From an uncultured Chloroflexia bacterium (lineage in GTDB: Bacteria > Chloroflexota > Limnocylindria > Limnocylindrales > CSP1-4): 64,000 nt of DNA. Location of the stretch: NCBI GenBank assembly GCA_963850555.1, contig CAWKLT010000002.1:19725-83724 (forward strand). Direction: 5' to 3'. The notes under the pieces were generated by a model that saw only the letters and a program-made list of their open reading frames with translations, was not told where the DNA came from and did no database searches. Both the position numbers and the translations under genes were made by a program. Shown one piece after another: positions 25,953 to 32,355 of this stretch; the stretch's first letter is position 1, and every line of letters starts with the position of its first letter.

Positions 25953-28536
25953 CTAGACGGTCTCCTTGGCCAGGTGGCGCTGCATCGCGGCCTTGCGCGA
26001 GAGGTTGACGCGGCCCTGCCGGTCCACCTCGAGCACGACGACCATGATCTCGTCACCGACGGACACGACGTCCTCGACGGTCGGCACGTGGTAGTCGGCG
26101 AGCTCGCCGATGCGCACGAGGCCTTCCTTGCCGGGAAGGATCTCGACGAACGCGCCGAAGCCCATGATCCGGGTGACCTTGCCCATGTATAGGGCACCGA
26201 CCTCGACGTCGCGGGTCAGCGACTCGATCCACTGGATCGCCTTGCGCGAGTTCTCGCCGGAGACGGCCGCGATCTCCACGGTGCCGTCGTCCTCGACGTT
26301 GATCTCGGTCTGGGTCTCTTCCTGGATCTTGCGGATCATCGACCCACCCTTGCCGATGATCTCGCGGATCTTCTCGGGGTTGATCTTGATCGTGATGATG
26401 CGAGGAGCGAAGTCGCTCATGTCGGCGCGGGCCTCGGGGAGGACCTCGGCCATCTTGTCGAGGATCGTCAGTCGCGCGTTCAGGGCCTGCGCCAGGCCGT
26501 CGCGGATGATCGCCTCGCTGATGCCCTGGACCTTGATGTCCATCTGCAGGGCGGTCACACCGTCCCGCGTACCGGTCACCTTGAAGTCCATGTCGCCGAT
26601 CGAGTCTTCCTTGCCGAGGATGTCGGTCAGGACGACGAACCGGCCATCAGGCTCGCTGATCAGGCCCATCGCCGCTCCGGCGACGGGTGCCTTGATCGGC
26701 ACGCCGGCGTCCATGAGCGCAAGCGTCGAGCCGCAGGTCGAGGCCATCGAGGTGGACCCGTTCGACGTCACGCACTCGCTGACGAGGCGGATGACATACG
26801 GGAACTCGTCGTGGCTCGGCAGGACCGGGACGAGCGCGCGCTCGGCGAGGTGGCCGTGGCCGATGTCACGCCGGCTGGGCCCGCGCATCATCTTGTTCTC
26901 GCCGGTGCTGTAGGGCGGGAAGTTGTAGTGGTGGAGGTAGCGCTTCTCGGTCTCCGGGCTGATCGTGTCGATCCGCTGGACGTCCGAGGACGAGCCGAGC
27001 GTGGCGACGGTCAGCGCCTGGGTCTCGCCGCGCGTGAACAGGCCGGAGCCGTGCGCTCGCGGGACCAGGCCCACCTCGACCGAGATCGGACGGATGTCCG
27101 TCAGGCCGCGGCCGTCGATCCGGATGCCCTCGTCGAGGACGATCTGGCGGACGGTCTTCTTCTGGACCAGGCTGAACAGGTTCTTGCTGACGCGGGCCTC
27201 GCGCCGGGCCGCCTCGAGCAGCGCGGGCGTGTCGCCACCGCTGCGCTGAGCGCGGACGGCGTTGCCGATCGACTCGCGAAGGGCCGTGATCCGACCGGGC
27301 AGGTCGTTGGCGAACCAGAGCAGCAGCTCCGCGGTCGCCTCGGCGTCCGGAAGGGCGCGATGGCTCTGCGAGAGCTCGACGCCGAAGAAGCGCGCCAGGT
27401 CACCGAGCTTGTACGACTCGGCGCCGGGATAGCCCTCGCGGGCGATGACCAGCGTGTCGAGGTAGCTGCCCGGTCTGGAACCGGAACCCCTCGCCCCTGG
27501 CCTCTTCGATGAAGCCGAGGTCGAAGCCGACGTTGTGGCCGACGATCAACGCGTCCCCGACGAAGGCCAGCAGCTTGTCGGCCGCCTCCTTGGGGCTGGG
27601 CGCGCCCTGGACGTCCTTGTCGGTGATGCCGTGCATCTGGTTCCCGACGATGGATCGGCCCGGGTTCACGAACGTCGACCAGCGGTCGACGATCTTCGTG
27701 CCCTTGATCTTGACCGCGGCGACCTCGACGAGGTCCGACATCTTGGGATCGGTGCCGGTCGTCTCGACGTCGATGACGACGAGCTCGCGCTTGGCGTCCG
27801 TCGCGGACGCGAAGTCCAGCACGGAGTCGGTCAGCGGCTCGATGTACGGGATCCGCTTGGCCTTGCCGACGGCCTTCTGGAGCTGCTCCTGAAGGTCGAC
27901 GATGGGCTGGAGGGCCCGATGGCCGAACAGGATCGCCTCGGCCATGACGGCCTCGGGCAGCAGGTTCGCACCGGCCTCGACCATCATGATCGCGTCGCGG
28001 GTGCCGGCGACGATCAGGTCGAGCTCGGAGTCCTTCATCTGGCTGAAGGTCGGGTTGACGACGAACTCGCCGTCGATCCGGCCGACGCGGACCGATGCGA
28101 TCGGGCCGTTGAACGGGATCTCGCTGATCGTGAGCGCCGCGGATGCGGCGATCGTGCCGACGACGTCCGGCAGGTTCTCCTGATCGGTCGAGAGGACCGT
28201 GATCACGAGCTGGACATCGTCCTTGTAGCCCTTCGGGAAGAGCGGGCGGATCGGCCGGTCCGTCTGGCGGGCGGCCAGGATCGCGTTCTCGGACGGGCGC
28301 GCCTCGCGCTTGATGAAGCCGCCCGGGATCTTGCCCGCGGCGTACATGCGCTCCTCGAAGTCGACCGTGAGCGGGAAGAAGTCGAGGCCGGGGCGCGGCT
28401 CGGAGCGGTTGGCCGTCCCGAGCACCATGGTGTCACCGTATCGGACGGTGACGGAACCGCCGGCGAGCGTTGCGAGCTTGCCGGTCTCGATGGTCAGCGT
28501 GCGACCACCGATCTGTGTCTCGAATGTTTGAGACAA
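25953..28536 (-). CDS. pnp: polyribonucleotide nucleotidyltransferase (PNPase) with an inserted DEDDh 3'-5' exonuclease domain; frame broken once
   Basis: ORF 27400..28536 (TTG start, SD AAGGAGGA) has RNase PH domain 1 ([28 protein letters not shown]), then VVIDVETTG and [13 protein letters not shown]. The hand-translated open frame 27479-27075 continues [13 protein letters not shown]...[15 protein letters not shown]...[17 protein letters not shown] into ORF 25953..27074 (PH2, [14 protein letters not shown]1 [23 protein letters not shown]). The junction is at ~27470-27478, and the span length is 3n+1. Confidence 0.9.
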
Positions 28537-28545
28537 GGGAAACGA

Positions 28546-28644
28546 TCCTCCTTGTCGTGGAGGAGGGAGACGACCCGCGGGCGGGTCGGCCTGCTGCGCT
28601 GCTGGCCCCTAGGTAGACGCGAACCTCGGGGTAACGCCCGAGGT
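28546..28644 (-). promoter_or_regulatory. structured rpsO-pnp intergenic leader (candidate pnp autoregulatory / RNase III target hairpins)
   Basis: Minus-strand RNA: hairpin ACCUCGGG-CGUUAC-CCCGAGGU (28644-28623) lies 16 nt after the rpsO stop. A GC hairpin lies at 28588-28571. UCCUCC (28564-28559) can pair with the pnp SD GGAGGA (28551-28546). Confidence 0.4.
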
Positions 28645-28659
28645 CCGGAACGGCGGGTG

Positions 28660-28929
28660 CTAGCGGCGGAGTCCGAGCCGTCCGATGACGGTCCGGTAAC
28701 GCGCGCTGTCCTTCTTCATCAGGTAGGCGAGAAGGCGACGGCGCTGGCCGACGAGCTTGAGGAGGCCGCGGCGCGAATGGTTGTCCTTGGGGAAGCTGCG
28801 AAGATGCCCGGTCAGTTCCGCGATCCGCTCGGTAAGGAGCGCGACCTGGACTTCGGGCGAACCGGTGTCACCTTCCTTGGTGGCATACCCGGTGATGATC
28901 TCCTGCTTCTGTTCCCGCGCGAGCGGCAC
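28660..28929 (-). CDS. rpsO: 30S ribosomal protein S15
   Basis: GTG 28929 (SD GGAGGA 4 nt upstream) within ORF 28660..28968 gives 89 aa: ...[49 protein letters not shown]...GLRR. Confidence 0.95.
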
Positions 28930-31335: not shown

Positions 31336-32355
31336 TCAGCGAGCGACCTCGGCGGCGAGGCGATCCGCCTCGGCCAGGACTGCCGGCCGTGCCTGGTCCA
31401 CGGGGAGCTCCACGGTCGCCCCGGCCGCCCGGGCGTGCCCGCCGCCACCGAACTTCCCGGTCAGCACCGTGGCATCCACCCCACCGGGCTTCGTTCGAAC
31501 GCTGATCCGTGTCGCTTCGCCGGCCTCCTTGAACAGGATCGCCACCTCGGCCTCGTCGGCCTGGGCCAGGAGATCGATGATCCCTTCGGACTGGGGCGCG
31601 AGCGTGCCGGTCGCGGCCAGGTCCGCGTCGAGCAAGGTCGAGAAGATGACGCGGCCGCCGTCGACGGAGTCGAGCCGATCGAGCACCCGCCCGAACAGCC
31701 GGAGCTGTGCCGCCGGCTTGGAGCGATACAGCCGGCGTGAGATGTCGGACAGCGGCGCACCGGCCTCGACCAGGGCCGCGGACACGGCCAGGGTTCGGGG
31801 CGTCGCGTTCGGGTGCGCGAACGTGGCGGTGTCCATGACGATCCCGGCCATCAGGGCCGCCGCCATTGCCCCATCTCCGATATCCAGCGGCACGCCCATG
31901 CGGGTCGCCAGGAGGGCGACCATCTCGCAGGTCGCGGCGGCGTGCGGCTCGATCCAGTCGGTCTCGCCCGCGGCATCGTTCGAGGCGTGGTGGTCGATGA
32001 CGACGCGTGGCAGGCGTTCGAACAGCTCCGCATGACGCCCACGGACATCGCCGATCCGATCGAGCGAGCCGCAATCGGACACGACGAGCAGGTCGTACGG
32101 CGCCGCAGGATCCGGGTCGGTGCGGACGCGCTCCACACCTGCCAGGAAGTCGTAGAGCGGCGGGACCGGGTCCGTGCAGACCGGGTCGGCCGAACCCCCG
32201 AGCGTCTCGACGATCCGGACGATGCCGAGCGTCGCCCCGAGCGTGTCAGCATCGGGGTTCTCGTGACCCACGGCCAGGACGCGGCGGGCGCTGCGCAGCC
32301 GCTCGACGACGGCGTCGGGCACCGCGTCGAGGTACGGGCCCAGGTCGATGCTCAT
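31336..32355 (-). CDS. nrnA: DHH-family phosphoesterase (NrnA-like bifunctional oligoribonuclease / pAp phosphatase)
   Basis: ATG 32355 (ATGA overlap with the rbfA stop) gives 339 aa. Motifs: LAVGHENPDADTLG, VVSDCGS, VIDHHASN (DHH), DHHA1 motif GKFGGGGHARAAG. Confidence 0.85.
   Translation of the reverse strand: MSIDLGPYLDAVPDAVVERLRSARRVLAVGHENPDADTLGATLGIVRIVETLGGSADPVCTDPVPPLYDFLAGVERVRTDPDPAAPYDLLVVSDCGSLDRIGDVRGRHAELFERLPRVVIDHHASNDAAGETDWIEPHAAATCEMVALLATRMGVPLDIGDGAMAAALMAGIVMDTATFAHPNATPRTLAVSAALVEAGAPLSDISRRLYRSKPAAQLRLFGRVLDRLDSVDGGRVIFSTLLDADLAATGTLAPQSEGIIDLLAQADEAEVAILFKEAGEATRISVRTKPGGVDATVLTGKFGGGGHARAAGATVELPVDQARPAVLAEADRLAAEVAR

Follow-up and report, generated by a model that had tools for sequence, protein, structure and literature searches.

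A predicted DEDDh 3'-5' exonuclease nested in the PNPase of Limnocylindria

The pnp gene of a soil Chloroflexota bacterium of the class Limnocylindria is predicted to encode a PNPase with a second nuclease, a DEDDh 3'-5' exonuclease domain nested within its helical domain. Few RNA-decay enzymes are as conserved or as well studied as PNPase, whose arrangement of domains is generally taken to be invariable. In the window analyzed here (a single stretch of 64,000 nucleotides), the gene lies directly 3' of rpsO and is best explained as the organism's ordinary rpsO-linked pnp, encoding a putative two-nuclease PNPase. We have good confidence in this architecture, in its conservation throughout the class and in an active DEDDh site.

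Domains in the repaired protein follow the order RNase PH1, helical domain with nested exonuclease, RNase PH2, KH and S1 (Table 1). The first-pass annotation had recognized the long frame running from TTG 28536 to TAG 25953 and put it at ~861 codons; after removal of one base, the product has 860 residues. Pfam detects two RNase_PH domains (1.3e-52), RNase_PH_C, KH_1 (6.4e-11) and S1 (2.8e-18) in the order found in PNPase, and the NCBIfam PNPase model TIGR03591 scores 951.5 bits (cutoff 525), with two matched stretches that flank the insert. Alignments to PDB structures are likewise colinear, and the insert falls between two PNPase blocks. In PH2, the predicted phosphate ligands T595/S596 and metal ligands D644, D650 and K652, whose codons were verified, were matched by motif to S438/S439 (phosphate site) and D486, D492 and K494 (metal site) of E. 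coli PNPase (PMC2723993).

Table 1. Features of the pnp locus, in coordinates of the window
Feature	Position	Strand	Residues, details and basis
rpsO (ribosomal protein S15)	28660..28929	-	ORF immediately 5' of pnp; canonical rpsO-pnp pairing
pnp coding sequence	25953..28536	-	TTG start 28536, TAG stop 25953-25955; 860 aa after one-base removal
RNase PH domain 1 + RNase_PH_C	27907..28536	-	Residues 1-210; channel loop GGFIKRE; Pfam and PDB alignments
N-terminal helices of PNPase helical domain	27787..27906	-	Residues 211-250; AF2; aligns with helical-domain start of 8zaw
Nested predicted DEDDh (DnaQ-like) 3'-5' exonuclease domain	27312..27786	-	Residues 251-408; Pfam RNase_T, PDB 2p1j
Predicted exonuclease catalytic codons	D256 27769-27771; E258 27763-27765; D339 27520-27522; H392 27360-27362; D397 27345-27347	-	Codons verified
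C-terminal helices of helical domain, running into PH2	27102..27311	-	Residues 409-478; AF2, Pfam; aligns with 8zaw from residue 287
RNase PH domain 2 + C-terminal subdomain, predicted phosphorolytic site	26436..27101	-	Residues 479-700; Pfam
KH + S1 RNA-binding domains	25956..26435	-	KH residues 701-775, S1 residues 776-860; Pfam
Homopolymer run with frame-breaking insertion	27469..27471	.	Plus CCC / minus GGG, versus CC in L001 and L002

Our structural model suggests that the exonuclease was inserted into a helical domain that is still in place, not replaced. AF2 predicts helices before the insert (residues 210-223 and 237-247) and after it (394-432, 436-447 and 451-469), with pLDDT of 80-96 per 10-residue block over residues 131-480, including 211-250. 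The model is of a monomer, and its PH core and S1 domain are of low confidence because the alignment was shallow. The Pfam helical-domain model, PF03726, falls just short of its cutoff (24.2 versus 24.6 bits), with only profile positions 52-80 of 81 aligned at residues 448-476. The insert had earlier been placed in the segment that should hold the all-alpha linker; this position stands, but the linker itself appears to be retained as helices on either side. Similarly, the interval first assigned to the insert, 27075-27790, does contain the exonuclease, at 27312-27786, whereas 27075-27311 codes for the C-terminal helices that belong to the helical domain and for the beginning of PH2 (residues 479-487).

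The Pfam search of the repaired protein that returned the PNPase domains also identified RNase_T (PF00929) at residues 253-405, spanning profile positions 1-164 of 164 (E = 8.1e-30; 105 bits versus a gathering cutoff of 24), a match far beyond chance. The domain comprises 158 residues and contains all three exonuclease motifs: Exo I (D256/E258), Exo II (D339) and Exo III (H392/D397, H-x4-D). AF2 models it with pLDDT of 83-96 per 10-residue block over residues 251-410, its strands (E) and helices (H) running in the order E252-259, E269-278, E281-289, H315-326, E330-333, H336-347, E358-360, H361-368 and a helix from 394. Its alignment with 2p1j, an experimental structure of the PolC exonuclease, runs the full length of the domain, consistent with a DnaQ-type alpha/beta fold. 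Profile models from Pfam and NCBIfam, together with a 45-protein alignment described below, thereby bear out the earlier reading of an internal DEDDh 3'-5' exonuclease, with five catalytic residues, at the helical-linker position of a colinear PNPase.

Comparison with characterized DEDDh families indicates that the insert is nearest to the proofreading-type exonucleases of PolC, DinG and Pol III epsilon, and not to RNase T or Orn. Against PDB, it matches PolC exonuclease (2p1j, 1.4e-24), 9qpc (1.1e-23), DinG (8zef, 1.2e-18) and epsilon (~4e-10), followed by a marginal, partial match to RNase T (2f96, E = 2.6e-4); this sequence search returned no Orn or REXO2 structure at E <= 0.001. RNase T and Orn are also absent among the best 25 of the 69 NCBIfam families matched by the protein. 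Equivalog cutoffs are not reached by dnaQ_proteo (TIGR01406; 85.6 versus 222.7), PolC (134.6 versus 873) or DinG (137 versus 789); among models of the PolC, DinG and epsilon type, the sole one above its cutoff is TIGR00573, a generic "dnaq" domain model (74.1 versus 71.5 bits). The nearest representatives outside the fusion carry VRR_NUC (FAN1-HTH/VRR_NUC-exonuclease proteins), GIY-YIG/UvrC or BRCT domains. RNase T and Orn have the DEDDh subclass in common with the insert, and PF00929 is named RNase_T, but the insert belongs to neither specific family. The original assignment to the DEDDh subclass of RNase T, Orn and Pol III epsilon is kept, with the qualification that the domain is nearest to the PolC, DinG and epsilon type.

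As its main substrate we tentatively favor RNA, degraded in cooperation with phosphorolysis, a reading that we regard as close to balanced and, if anything, slightly doubtful. An unlikely but substantial alternative is that the nested domain works in the metabolism of DNA or R-loops instead of in RNA decay. The closest homologs listed above all come from a DNA context, as do the VRR_NUC, GIY-YIG/UvrC and BRCT partners of the nearest non-fusion representatives. The DEDD domain of DinG digests ssDNA and, in hybrids, the RNA strand; for the B. subtilis enzyme, ssDNA is the preferred substrate and ssRNA is degraded only if Mn2+ is present (PMC12525004). E. coli PNPase has itself been linked to DNA repair and homologous recombination (PMC5379764, abstract). 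Against a DNA role, the domain is tethered within an RNA-binding particle (KH, S1) and is encoded in the rpsO-pnp cluster for translation and RNA processing. Moreover, ancestry leaves the substrate unfixed, because activity on RNA and DNA alike is found in some DEDDh enzymes: the 3' ends of DNA are also trimmed by RNase T, and REXO2 does not discriminate between RNA and DNA dinucleotides (PMC3942315 / PMC6900737, abstracts).

The genomic setting of pnp is that of a conventional PNPase gene. An 89-aa S15 gene lies 123 nt 5' of pnp in L001 and L002, two ~98% identical contigs; of 82 related loci, 76 have an S15 gene preceding pnp. The 64-kb window gave no matches in Rfam or tRNA scans. A DHH/DHHA1 (NrnA-type) gene sits between rbfA and truB within the pnp gene cluster. 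This gene bears on a further, rather improbable proposal, in which the domain would be a dedicated nanoRNase, removing the limit oligonucleotides of 2-5 nt that remain after digestion by the PNPase core, a task done in trans elsewhere by Orn or REXO2. Human mitochondria provide a precedent for pairing PNPase with a DEDDh enzyme in trans, PNPase being followed by REXO2 (PMC7261184, excerpt), and the helical domain adjoins the pore to the active site (PMC2723993). However, the insert has no PDB match to Orn or REXO2 at E <= 0.001 and only marginal similarity to RNase T, and a nanoRNase candidate is already present in the cluster in the form of the DHH/DHHA1 gene. Clearance of short end-products, an early suggestion for the fused domain, is somewhat weakened by that gene.

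In the window, the pnp gene carries a frame break. On the minus strand, the frame that begins at TTG 28536 stays open as far as 27400, and the frame ending in TAG 25953 is open upstream beyond 27521; the two overlap around 27470, and the junction reads ...FRFQTG followed by SYLDTL.... The break had been flagged at ~27474; it lies at 27469-27471, as one extra base in a C run. Using L001 and L002 as references, we found one base fewer at this site in both, and deletion of one base from the window pnp yields a translation identical to the database protein P0001. Over 860 codons, the window differs from L001 and L002 by 32 and 46 synonymous substitutions, respectively, and by no non-synonymous ones, a pattern that holds on both sides of the break and within the exonuclease insert. 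Single frame breaks occur in 6 of 35 pnp loci from long-read "MFD" MAGs, at six different residues, compared with none in the remaining pnp loci. Two further genes in the window, truB and ribF, also appear broken.

Most probably, then, the pnp break is a one-base homopolymer insertion arising from long-read assembly error, and for that reason we take the real product to be 860 aa. We read it as such an error rather than a pseudogene because of the identity to P0001 after repair and the absence of non-synonymous differences. A genuine pseudogene, or programmed frameshifting at 27469-27471, would fit the extra base and the two overlapping open frames of the window as given; it is nonetheless very improbable, as near-identical contigs without the base encode an intact protein, no non-synonymous change has accumulated 3' of the break, the breaks in other long-read MAGs are scattered, and the site is a simple homopolymer whose neighbors truB and ribF look broken too. 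We rejected both as the main reading on these grounds. A very recent, real inactivating mutation in this one strain may also lie behind the extra base.

The two-nuclease layout extends well beyond this genome. At least 120 of the best database matches to the repaired protein all contain PF00929 together with PNPase domains, as do at least 120 of the best matches to P0122, its homolog from Ca. Limnocylindrus. With the insert and its flanks as query, relatives were found to be encoded in 312 GTDB species representatives, so that the insert, first noted in a single sequence, is indeed shared. We compiled 82 loci, consisting of the best 80 of the relatives' loci and two for P0001; as far as the contigs reach, all 82 have the order S15, PH1, exonuclease, PH2, KH/S1. 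By record name, the related loci come nearly all from Chloroflexota/Limnocylindria MAGs, freshwater Ca. Limnocylindrus included. On these sequences, the layout appears to be conserved across the whole class Limnocylindria.

Alignment of 45 proteins (69-100% identity) showed that D256, E258, D339, H392 and D397 of the exonuclease are invariant in every one, as are T595, S596, D644, D650 and K652 of PH2. The rest of the exonuclease domain has a mean pairwise identity of 68% across the same proteins. This pattern indicates that the second nuclease is retained under purifying selection, and the invariant catalytic residues make DEDDh activity likely, without proving it. Two further readings, for which the unusual architecture is the sole argument, are scarcely credible: an insert created by chimeric assembly, and a structural spacer without catalytic function. 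The colinear gene and its domain order recur in hundreds of assemblies made independently, by different projects and with different assemblers, which refutes a chimera, and a dead spacer does not accord with five invariant catalytic residues in a domain otherwise averaging 68% identity.

Two groups of apparent outliers were discarded. Seven divergent representatives (P0123, P0126, P0128, P0145, P0150, P0168 and P0172; 41-60% identity) might have been taken for older or degenerate lineages; on alignment, they proved to be frameshifted gene calls with Arg/Pro-rich, out-of-frame tails, and the true identity span of the family is ~69-100%. Matches of ~700-740 aa with a C-terminal exonuclease were considered as PNPase variants, and the two examined (P0179 and P0195) are FAN1-HTH/VRR_NUC-exonuclease proteins.

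A PNPase trimer would display three hydrolytic 3'-5' exonuclease sites, dependent on Mg2+, on the ring face that lies away from KH/S1. In PNPase, the helical domain lies on that face and forms part of the pore to the active site (PMC2723993). The side pore to the phosphorolytic site would be flanked there by the helical domain. Each DEDDh site might trim single-stranded 3' ends independently of phosphate and release NMPs, complementing the NDP-releasing phosphorolysis of the core. Their substrate would most likely be RNA on the same particle, possibly along with DNA or the RNA strand of hybrids. We also entertain, as a possible but doubtful extension, a single-chain machine for phosphorolysis and hydrolysis in which the two sites physically cooperate; the three DEDDh sites, arranged in a ring, could for instance receive limit oligonucleotides, or 3' ends that have backtracked, by way of the side pore or of the channel's distal mouth. 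If true, this would be a covalent bacterial analogue of exosome/Rrp6 or PNPase/REXO2, and would let the cell do without phosphate in completing RNA decay or in trimming tails made by PNPase.

Canonical PNPases (E. coli 3GCM/7OGK, S. aureus 5YJJ, S. antibioticus 1E3H) share with the Limnocylindria protein the order PH1, helical, PH2, KH and S1, the phosphate and metal ligands, and a gene 3' of rpsO. PDB sequence E-values descend to 1.6e-212, and the top Foldseek matches to the whole model are all PNPases. The difference lies in ~158 extra residues, a full DEDDh domain within the helical domain; the Pfam helical-domain model matches only with its last 29 positions. None of the PDB chains matched by sequence or Foldseek exceeds 784 residues or contains an exonuclease insert. 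PolC exonuclease, the N-terminal DEDD exonuclease of DinG and Pol III epsilon have the same Exo I/II/III motifs with H-x4-D, and in PolC the exonuclease is likewise nested in a larger polypeptide; the host here is an RNA phosphorylase in place of a polymerase or helicase.

The pairing of a PH-ring 3'-5' machine with a hydrolytic DEDD-superfamily 3'-5' exonuclease recurs elsewhere. The eukaryotic exosome is a PH-ring machine partnered with Rrp6, a DEDD hydrolase. PNPase occurs with RNase D in the Caulobacter degradosome (PMC4245959), and the mitochondrial succession of PNPase and REXO2 is comparable. In these systems, the partners are separate polypeptides of the DEDDy RNase D type or the Orn type, whereas in Limnocylindria a DEDDh domain of the PolC/epsilon type is covalently part of the PNPase polypeptide, nested inside it.

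A PNPase-exonuclease fusion came up neither in literature searches nor in a term search of a genomics paper on Limnocylindria from 2026. The first-pass annotation knew of no description of this architecture; we too found no paper characterizing it, but the architecture is widespread within a single bacterial class, and for years public databases have contained it under automatically assigned names, either "PNPase" or "DNA polymerase III epsilon family exonuclease". These conflicting names, and the frequent splitting of the gene by frameshifts in long-read MAGs, call for care in annotation.

Limnocylindria, known from soil, groundwater and freshwater metagenomes, thus appear to hold a second nuclease of different chemistry inside the PNPase domain plan. 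The helical domain of PNPase is poorly understood. If the DEDDh domain is active, these bacteria would offer a natural experiment on the roles of the helical domain and side pore, a covalent counterpart of the recurring partnership between PH-ring nucleases and DEDD hydrolases, and a testable case for combining phosphorolytic and hydrolytic 3' decay.

The pnp gene lies on the minus strand in two open frames that overlap at ~27470, the first starting a few bases downstream of a GGAGGA box. Joining them after the residues GFRFQTG gives an 860-residue protein (the repaired protein), which NCBIfam TIGR03591 recognizes as a whole as PNPase (951 bits versus 525), in two matched blocks that flank an insert. 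The first-pass annotation had read the gene as a PNPase with an internal DEDDh exonuclease domain, and the order of the Pfam domains, with a strong RNase_T match in the interior, bears this out; the three exonuclease motifs it quoted are found exactly so in the sequence. Score, domain order, catalytic residues and synteny all identify the predicted product as a member of the PNPase family.

Features of the PNPase-DEDDh gene, its surroundings and its predicted product (residue numbers refer to the repaired protein; L001 is a related contig)
Feature	Position	Method	Detail
pnp frame 1, minus strand	window 28536 to 27400-27402		TTG start to stop
pnp frame 2, minus strand	window, from beyond 27521 to 25953		open; ends in TAG
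rpsO-pnp intergenic region, minus strand	window 28537-28665		129 nt; rpsO stop and pnp leader
DHH/DHHA1 gene, minus strand	window ~31339-32355; L001 2178-3197		339 aa
RNase J gene	L001 10686-12368		three genes downstream of pnp
RNase_PH and RNase_PH_C		Pfam	first in order
Helices ahead of exonuclease	residues 210-223, 237-247	AlphaFold2
Alpha/beta domain	residues ~252-393	AlphaFold2
RNase_T (PF00929)	residues 253-405	Pfam	all 164 profile positions; E = 8.1e-30; 105 bits vs cutoff 24
Long helix	residues 394-432	AlphaFold2	opens with Exo III motif
Helices leading into PH2	residues 436-447, 451-469	AlphaFold2
PNPase helical-domain model, fragment	residues 448-476	Pfam	profile 52-80 of 81; 24.2 bits vs cutoff 24.6
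Second RNase_PH, then KH_1 and S1	C-terminal part	Pfam
DEDDh exonuclease domain			mean pairwise identity 0.68
Flanking helices			mean pairwise identity 0.59-0.71
PH cores (PH1, PH2)			mean pairwise identity 0.87-0.89

When the protein is aligned with solved PNPases, the added segment falls after PH1_C and before the final helices of the helical domain; the aligned query residues are 3-227 and 457-851 for S. aureus 5yjj, and 9-243 and 420-849 for 8zaw. An AlphaFold2 model built from 45 homologues (mean pLDDT 70.6; 10-residue block means 80-96 over residues 131-480) has helices on both sides of the alpha/beta domain, indicating that the exonuclease is inserted into a helical-domain loop and that the helical domain itself is kept, not replaced. 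A Foldseek search of the model against the PDB returned ordinary PNPases only, and neither it nor the sequence alignments revealed an insert in the matched chains, the longest of which has at most 784 residues. The DEDDh residues (D256, E258, D339, H392 and D397) are invariant in 45 full-length homologues of 69-100% identity, and the same holds for the PNPase residues that bind phosphate and metal (T595, S596, D644, D650 and K652), whose motif counterparts in E. coli are S438/S439, D486, D492 and K494 (PMC2723993).

At every residue the repaired protein matches a database protein (P0001). Two long ENA contigs, L001 and L002, encode P0001 without a break and share ~98% DNA identity with the window. 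A frame break had been flagged at ~27474; the window sequence does contain one, but base-level alignment to these contigs locates it in the plus-strand run at 27469-27471, which reads CCC in the window versus CC in both. With one base removed, the window's pnp differs from L001 by 32 substitutions and from L002 by 46, all of them synonymous; they fall before and after the break as well as within the insert. Two further minus-strand genes, truB (~30746) and ribF (~29808), change frame at points where both contigs are one base shorter than the window; by tblastn, TruB is split over two frames (1-197 and 180-317), as is RibF (1-190 and 191-248). With three breaks in less than 3.5 kb, the source assembly seems indel-prone. 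A single pnp break also occurs in 6 of 82 related loci, each at a different residue (237, 480, 485, 636, 672 or 772). All six are among the 35 loci of the 'MFD' MAG series, whose record names (contig_NNNN) and contig sizes in the megabase range suggest assembly from long reads; none was found in the remaining loci of the 82. As judged from these comparisons, the break in the window most probably reflects an indel error in a homopolymer. A pseudogene or a programmed frameshift is very unlikely, given an extra base with no counterpart in L001 or L002, exclusively synonymous substitutions, the scatter of the other breaks over six residues and the apparent breakage of truB and ribF. Gene calls on these contigs are also imperfect: asd is truncated on L001, and TruB-RibF and UDG-RNase J are fused on L002.

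The insertion is shared by relatives. The 120 best matches to the repaired protein (855-878 aa, at least 91% identity) all carry PF00929 together with PNPase domains; they are labeled Candidatus Limnocylindrales or Chloroflexota, and named either 'polyribonucleotide nucleotidyltransferase' or 'DNA polymerase III epsilon subunit family exonuclease'. Scanning one genome per GTDB species with the insert plus flanks (271 residues), we found a relative encoded in 312 species. The best 80 of these have 71-99% identity over the query; going by record titles, almost all are MAGs of Chloroflexota/Limnocylindria, CSP1-4 among them, and they stem from many projects. Two contigs assigned to Candidatus Eisenbacteria (DASQFM010000042.1) and Candidatus Dormiibacterota (DASQIK010000062.1) carry the fusion at ~83-84% identity; these are probably mis-binned Limnocylindria contigs rather than a sign that the fusion extends to other phyla. 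Among genuine members, the freshwater Ca. Limnocylindrus clade diverges most: its 864-aa protein P0122 shares 70% identity with the repaired protein overall, falling to 59% across the insert region. PF00929 is present in 120/120 of the best matches to P0122. As far as each contig extends, the order S15-PH1-EXO-PH2-KH/S1 (EXO, the DEDDh domain) holds in 82/82 loci, with rpsO upstream of pnp by a median of ~126 nt. This conserved order, the rpsO linkage and the wide occurrence of one PF00929-plus-PNPase layout argue that the fusion gene serves as the canonical pnp throughout class Limnocylindria; a chimera is rejected, and a paralogue seems unlikely. Clade-wide, a single chain combines a full PNPase with a full and conserved set of DEDDh catalytic residues, and this chain is under purifying selection.

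An exhaustive HMMER search of the insert-plus-flanks segment against 1.84 billion cluster representatives gave only 61 matches at E <= 1e-30, and each match that crosses the junctions is a partial or complete copy of this fusion. Representatives at 41-60% identity, considered as divergent family members, proved to be frameshifted gene calls; P0123, P0126, P0128, P0145, P0150, P0168 and P0172 have Arg/Pro-rich tails read out of frame, which high-GC DNA is expected to give. Such calls make up many of the family's 50%-identity cluster representatives and inflate its apparent diversity in clustered protein databases.

Among solved structures, the best relative of the insert is the T. maritima PolC exonuclease domain 2p1j (1.4e-24); other top relatives are full-length PolC 9qpc, DinG 8zef (1.2e-18), DnaQ 8h18 and Cas2-DEDDh, and E. 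coli epsilon matches at ~4e-10. The DEDDh subclass assigned in the first-pass annotation, which named RNase T, Orn and Pol III epsilon as its members, stands, with the five residues present and invariant. Of these three, RNase T and Orn are not close: in the PDB sequence search the RNase T match is weak (2.6e-4), and Orn and REXO2 are absent from the matches. The Pfam name RNase_T is a family label only. Compared with NCBIfam, the insert exceeds the cutoff of the generic 'dnaq' domain model alone; those of the epsilon, PolC and DinG equivalogs are not reached. In the nearest representatives outside the fusion family, the domain lies beside FAN1-HTH/VRR_NUC, GIY-YIG/UvrC or BRCT modules: FAN1-HTH, VRR_NUC and DEDDh in P0179 and P0195 (~740 aa), three tandem DEDDh domains with GIY-YIG and UVR in P0137 (1045 aa), and two with BRCT in P0160 (618 aa). 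The PolC, DinG and epsilon matches and these repair-type neighbors point to a proofreading/repair-exonuclease lineage, not RNase T or Orn, and by sequence we class the insert as a DEDDh superfamily member outside the RNase T, Orn, epsilon, PolC and DinG families proper.

The gene cluster reads infB-rbfA-truB-ribF-rpsO-pnp, with a DHH/DHHA1 protein of the NrnA-type nanoRNase/phosphoesterase family encoded between rbfA and truB. With this gene and RNase J near pnp, several RNA-decay genes are clustered. In the rpsO-pnp intergenic region, folding gives three strong hairpins rich in G+C (MFE -55.8 kcal/mol), the first directly after the rpsO stop. The region matches no Rfam family and may act as a terminator/attenuator or, like the E. 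coli rpsO-pnp leader, as a processing site. Scans of the whole 64-kb window found neither tRNA nor tmRNA, nor any Rfam family at the gathering threshold.

The PNPase helical domain lies on the torus face opposite KH/S1, forms part of a pore that leads to the active site as a second route beside the central channel, is dynamic and contributes to activity (PMC2723993). A trimer of the fusion would carry three hydrolytic 3'-5' exonuclease sites on this distal face. These would be active, metal-dependent and phosphate-independent, with single-stranded 3' ends delivered by the PNPase particle as substrates, and the enzyme is predicted to work like a PNPase plus a DnaQ-type exonuclease. We consider it likely that the fusion is real and its DEDDh site functional; we suggest, tentatively, that the main substrate is RNA and that the site cooperates with phosphorolysis. 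A role on DNA or R-loops would fit the ancestry of the domain and the preference of DinG for ssDNA and the RNA strand of hybrids (PMC12525004), and seems rather unlikely. A dedicated nanoRNase is improbable, given the lack of Orn-type similarity and the DHH/DHHA1 gene in the same cluster.

For an RNA-directed enzyme pairing phosphorolysis with hydrolysis, the exosome ring with Rrp6 is one comparable partnership in trans. PNPase is likewise partnered in trans with RNase D (Caulobacter degradosome; PMC4245959) and, in mitochondria, is followed by REXO2 (PMC7261184), whereas in Limnocylindria the link is covalent and nested. The first-pass remark that the architecture is not known to be described holds for the literature: full-text searches, of incomplete coverage, found no description of a PNPase-DEDDh fusion, and a term search of a 2026 Limnocylindria comparative-genomics paper returned no mention of it. 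It is less apt for the databases, where the sequences are already public under automatic names; both parts are well-known families. An RNA-decay specialist would find their fusion in a single chain surprising, and it can be tested directly.
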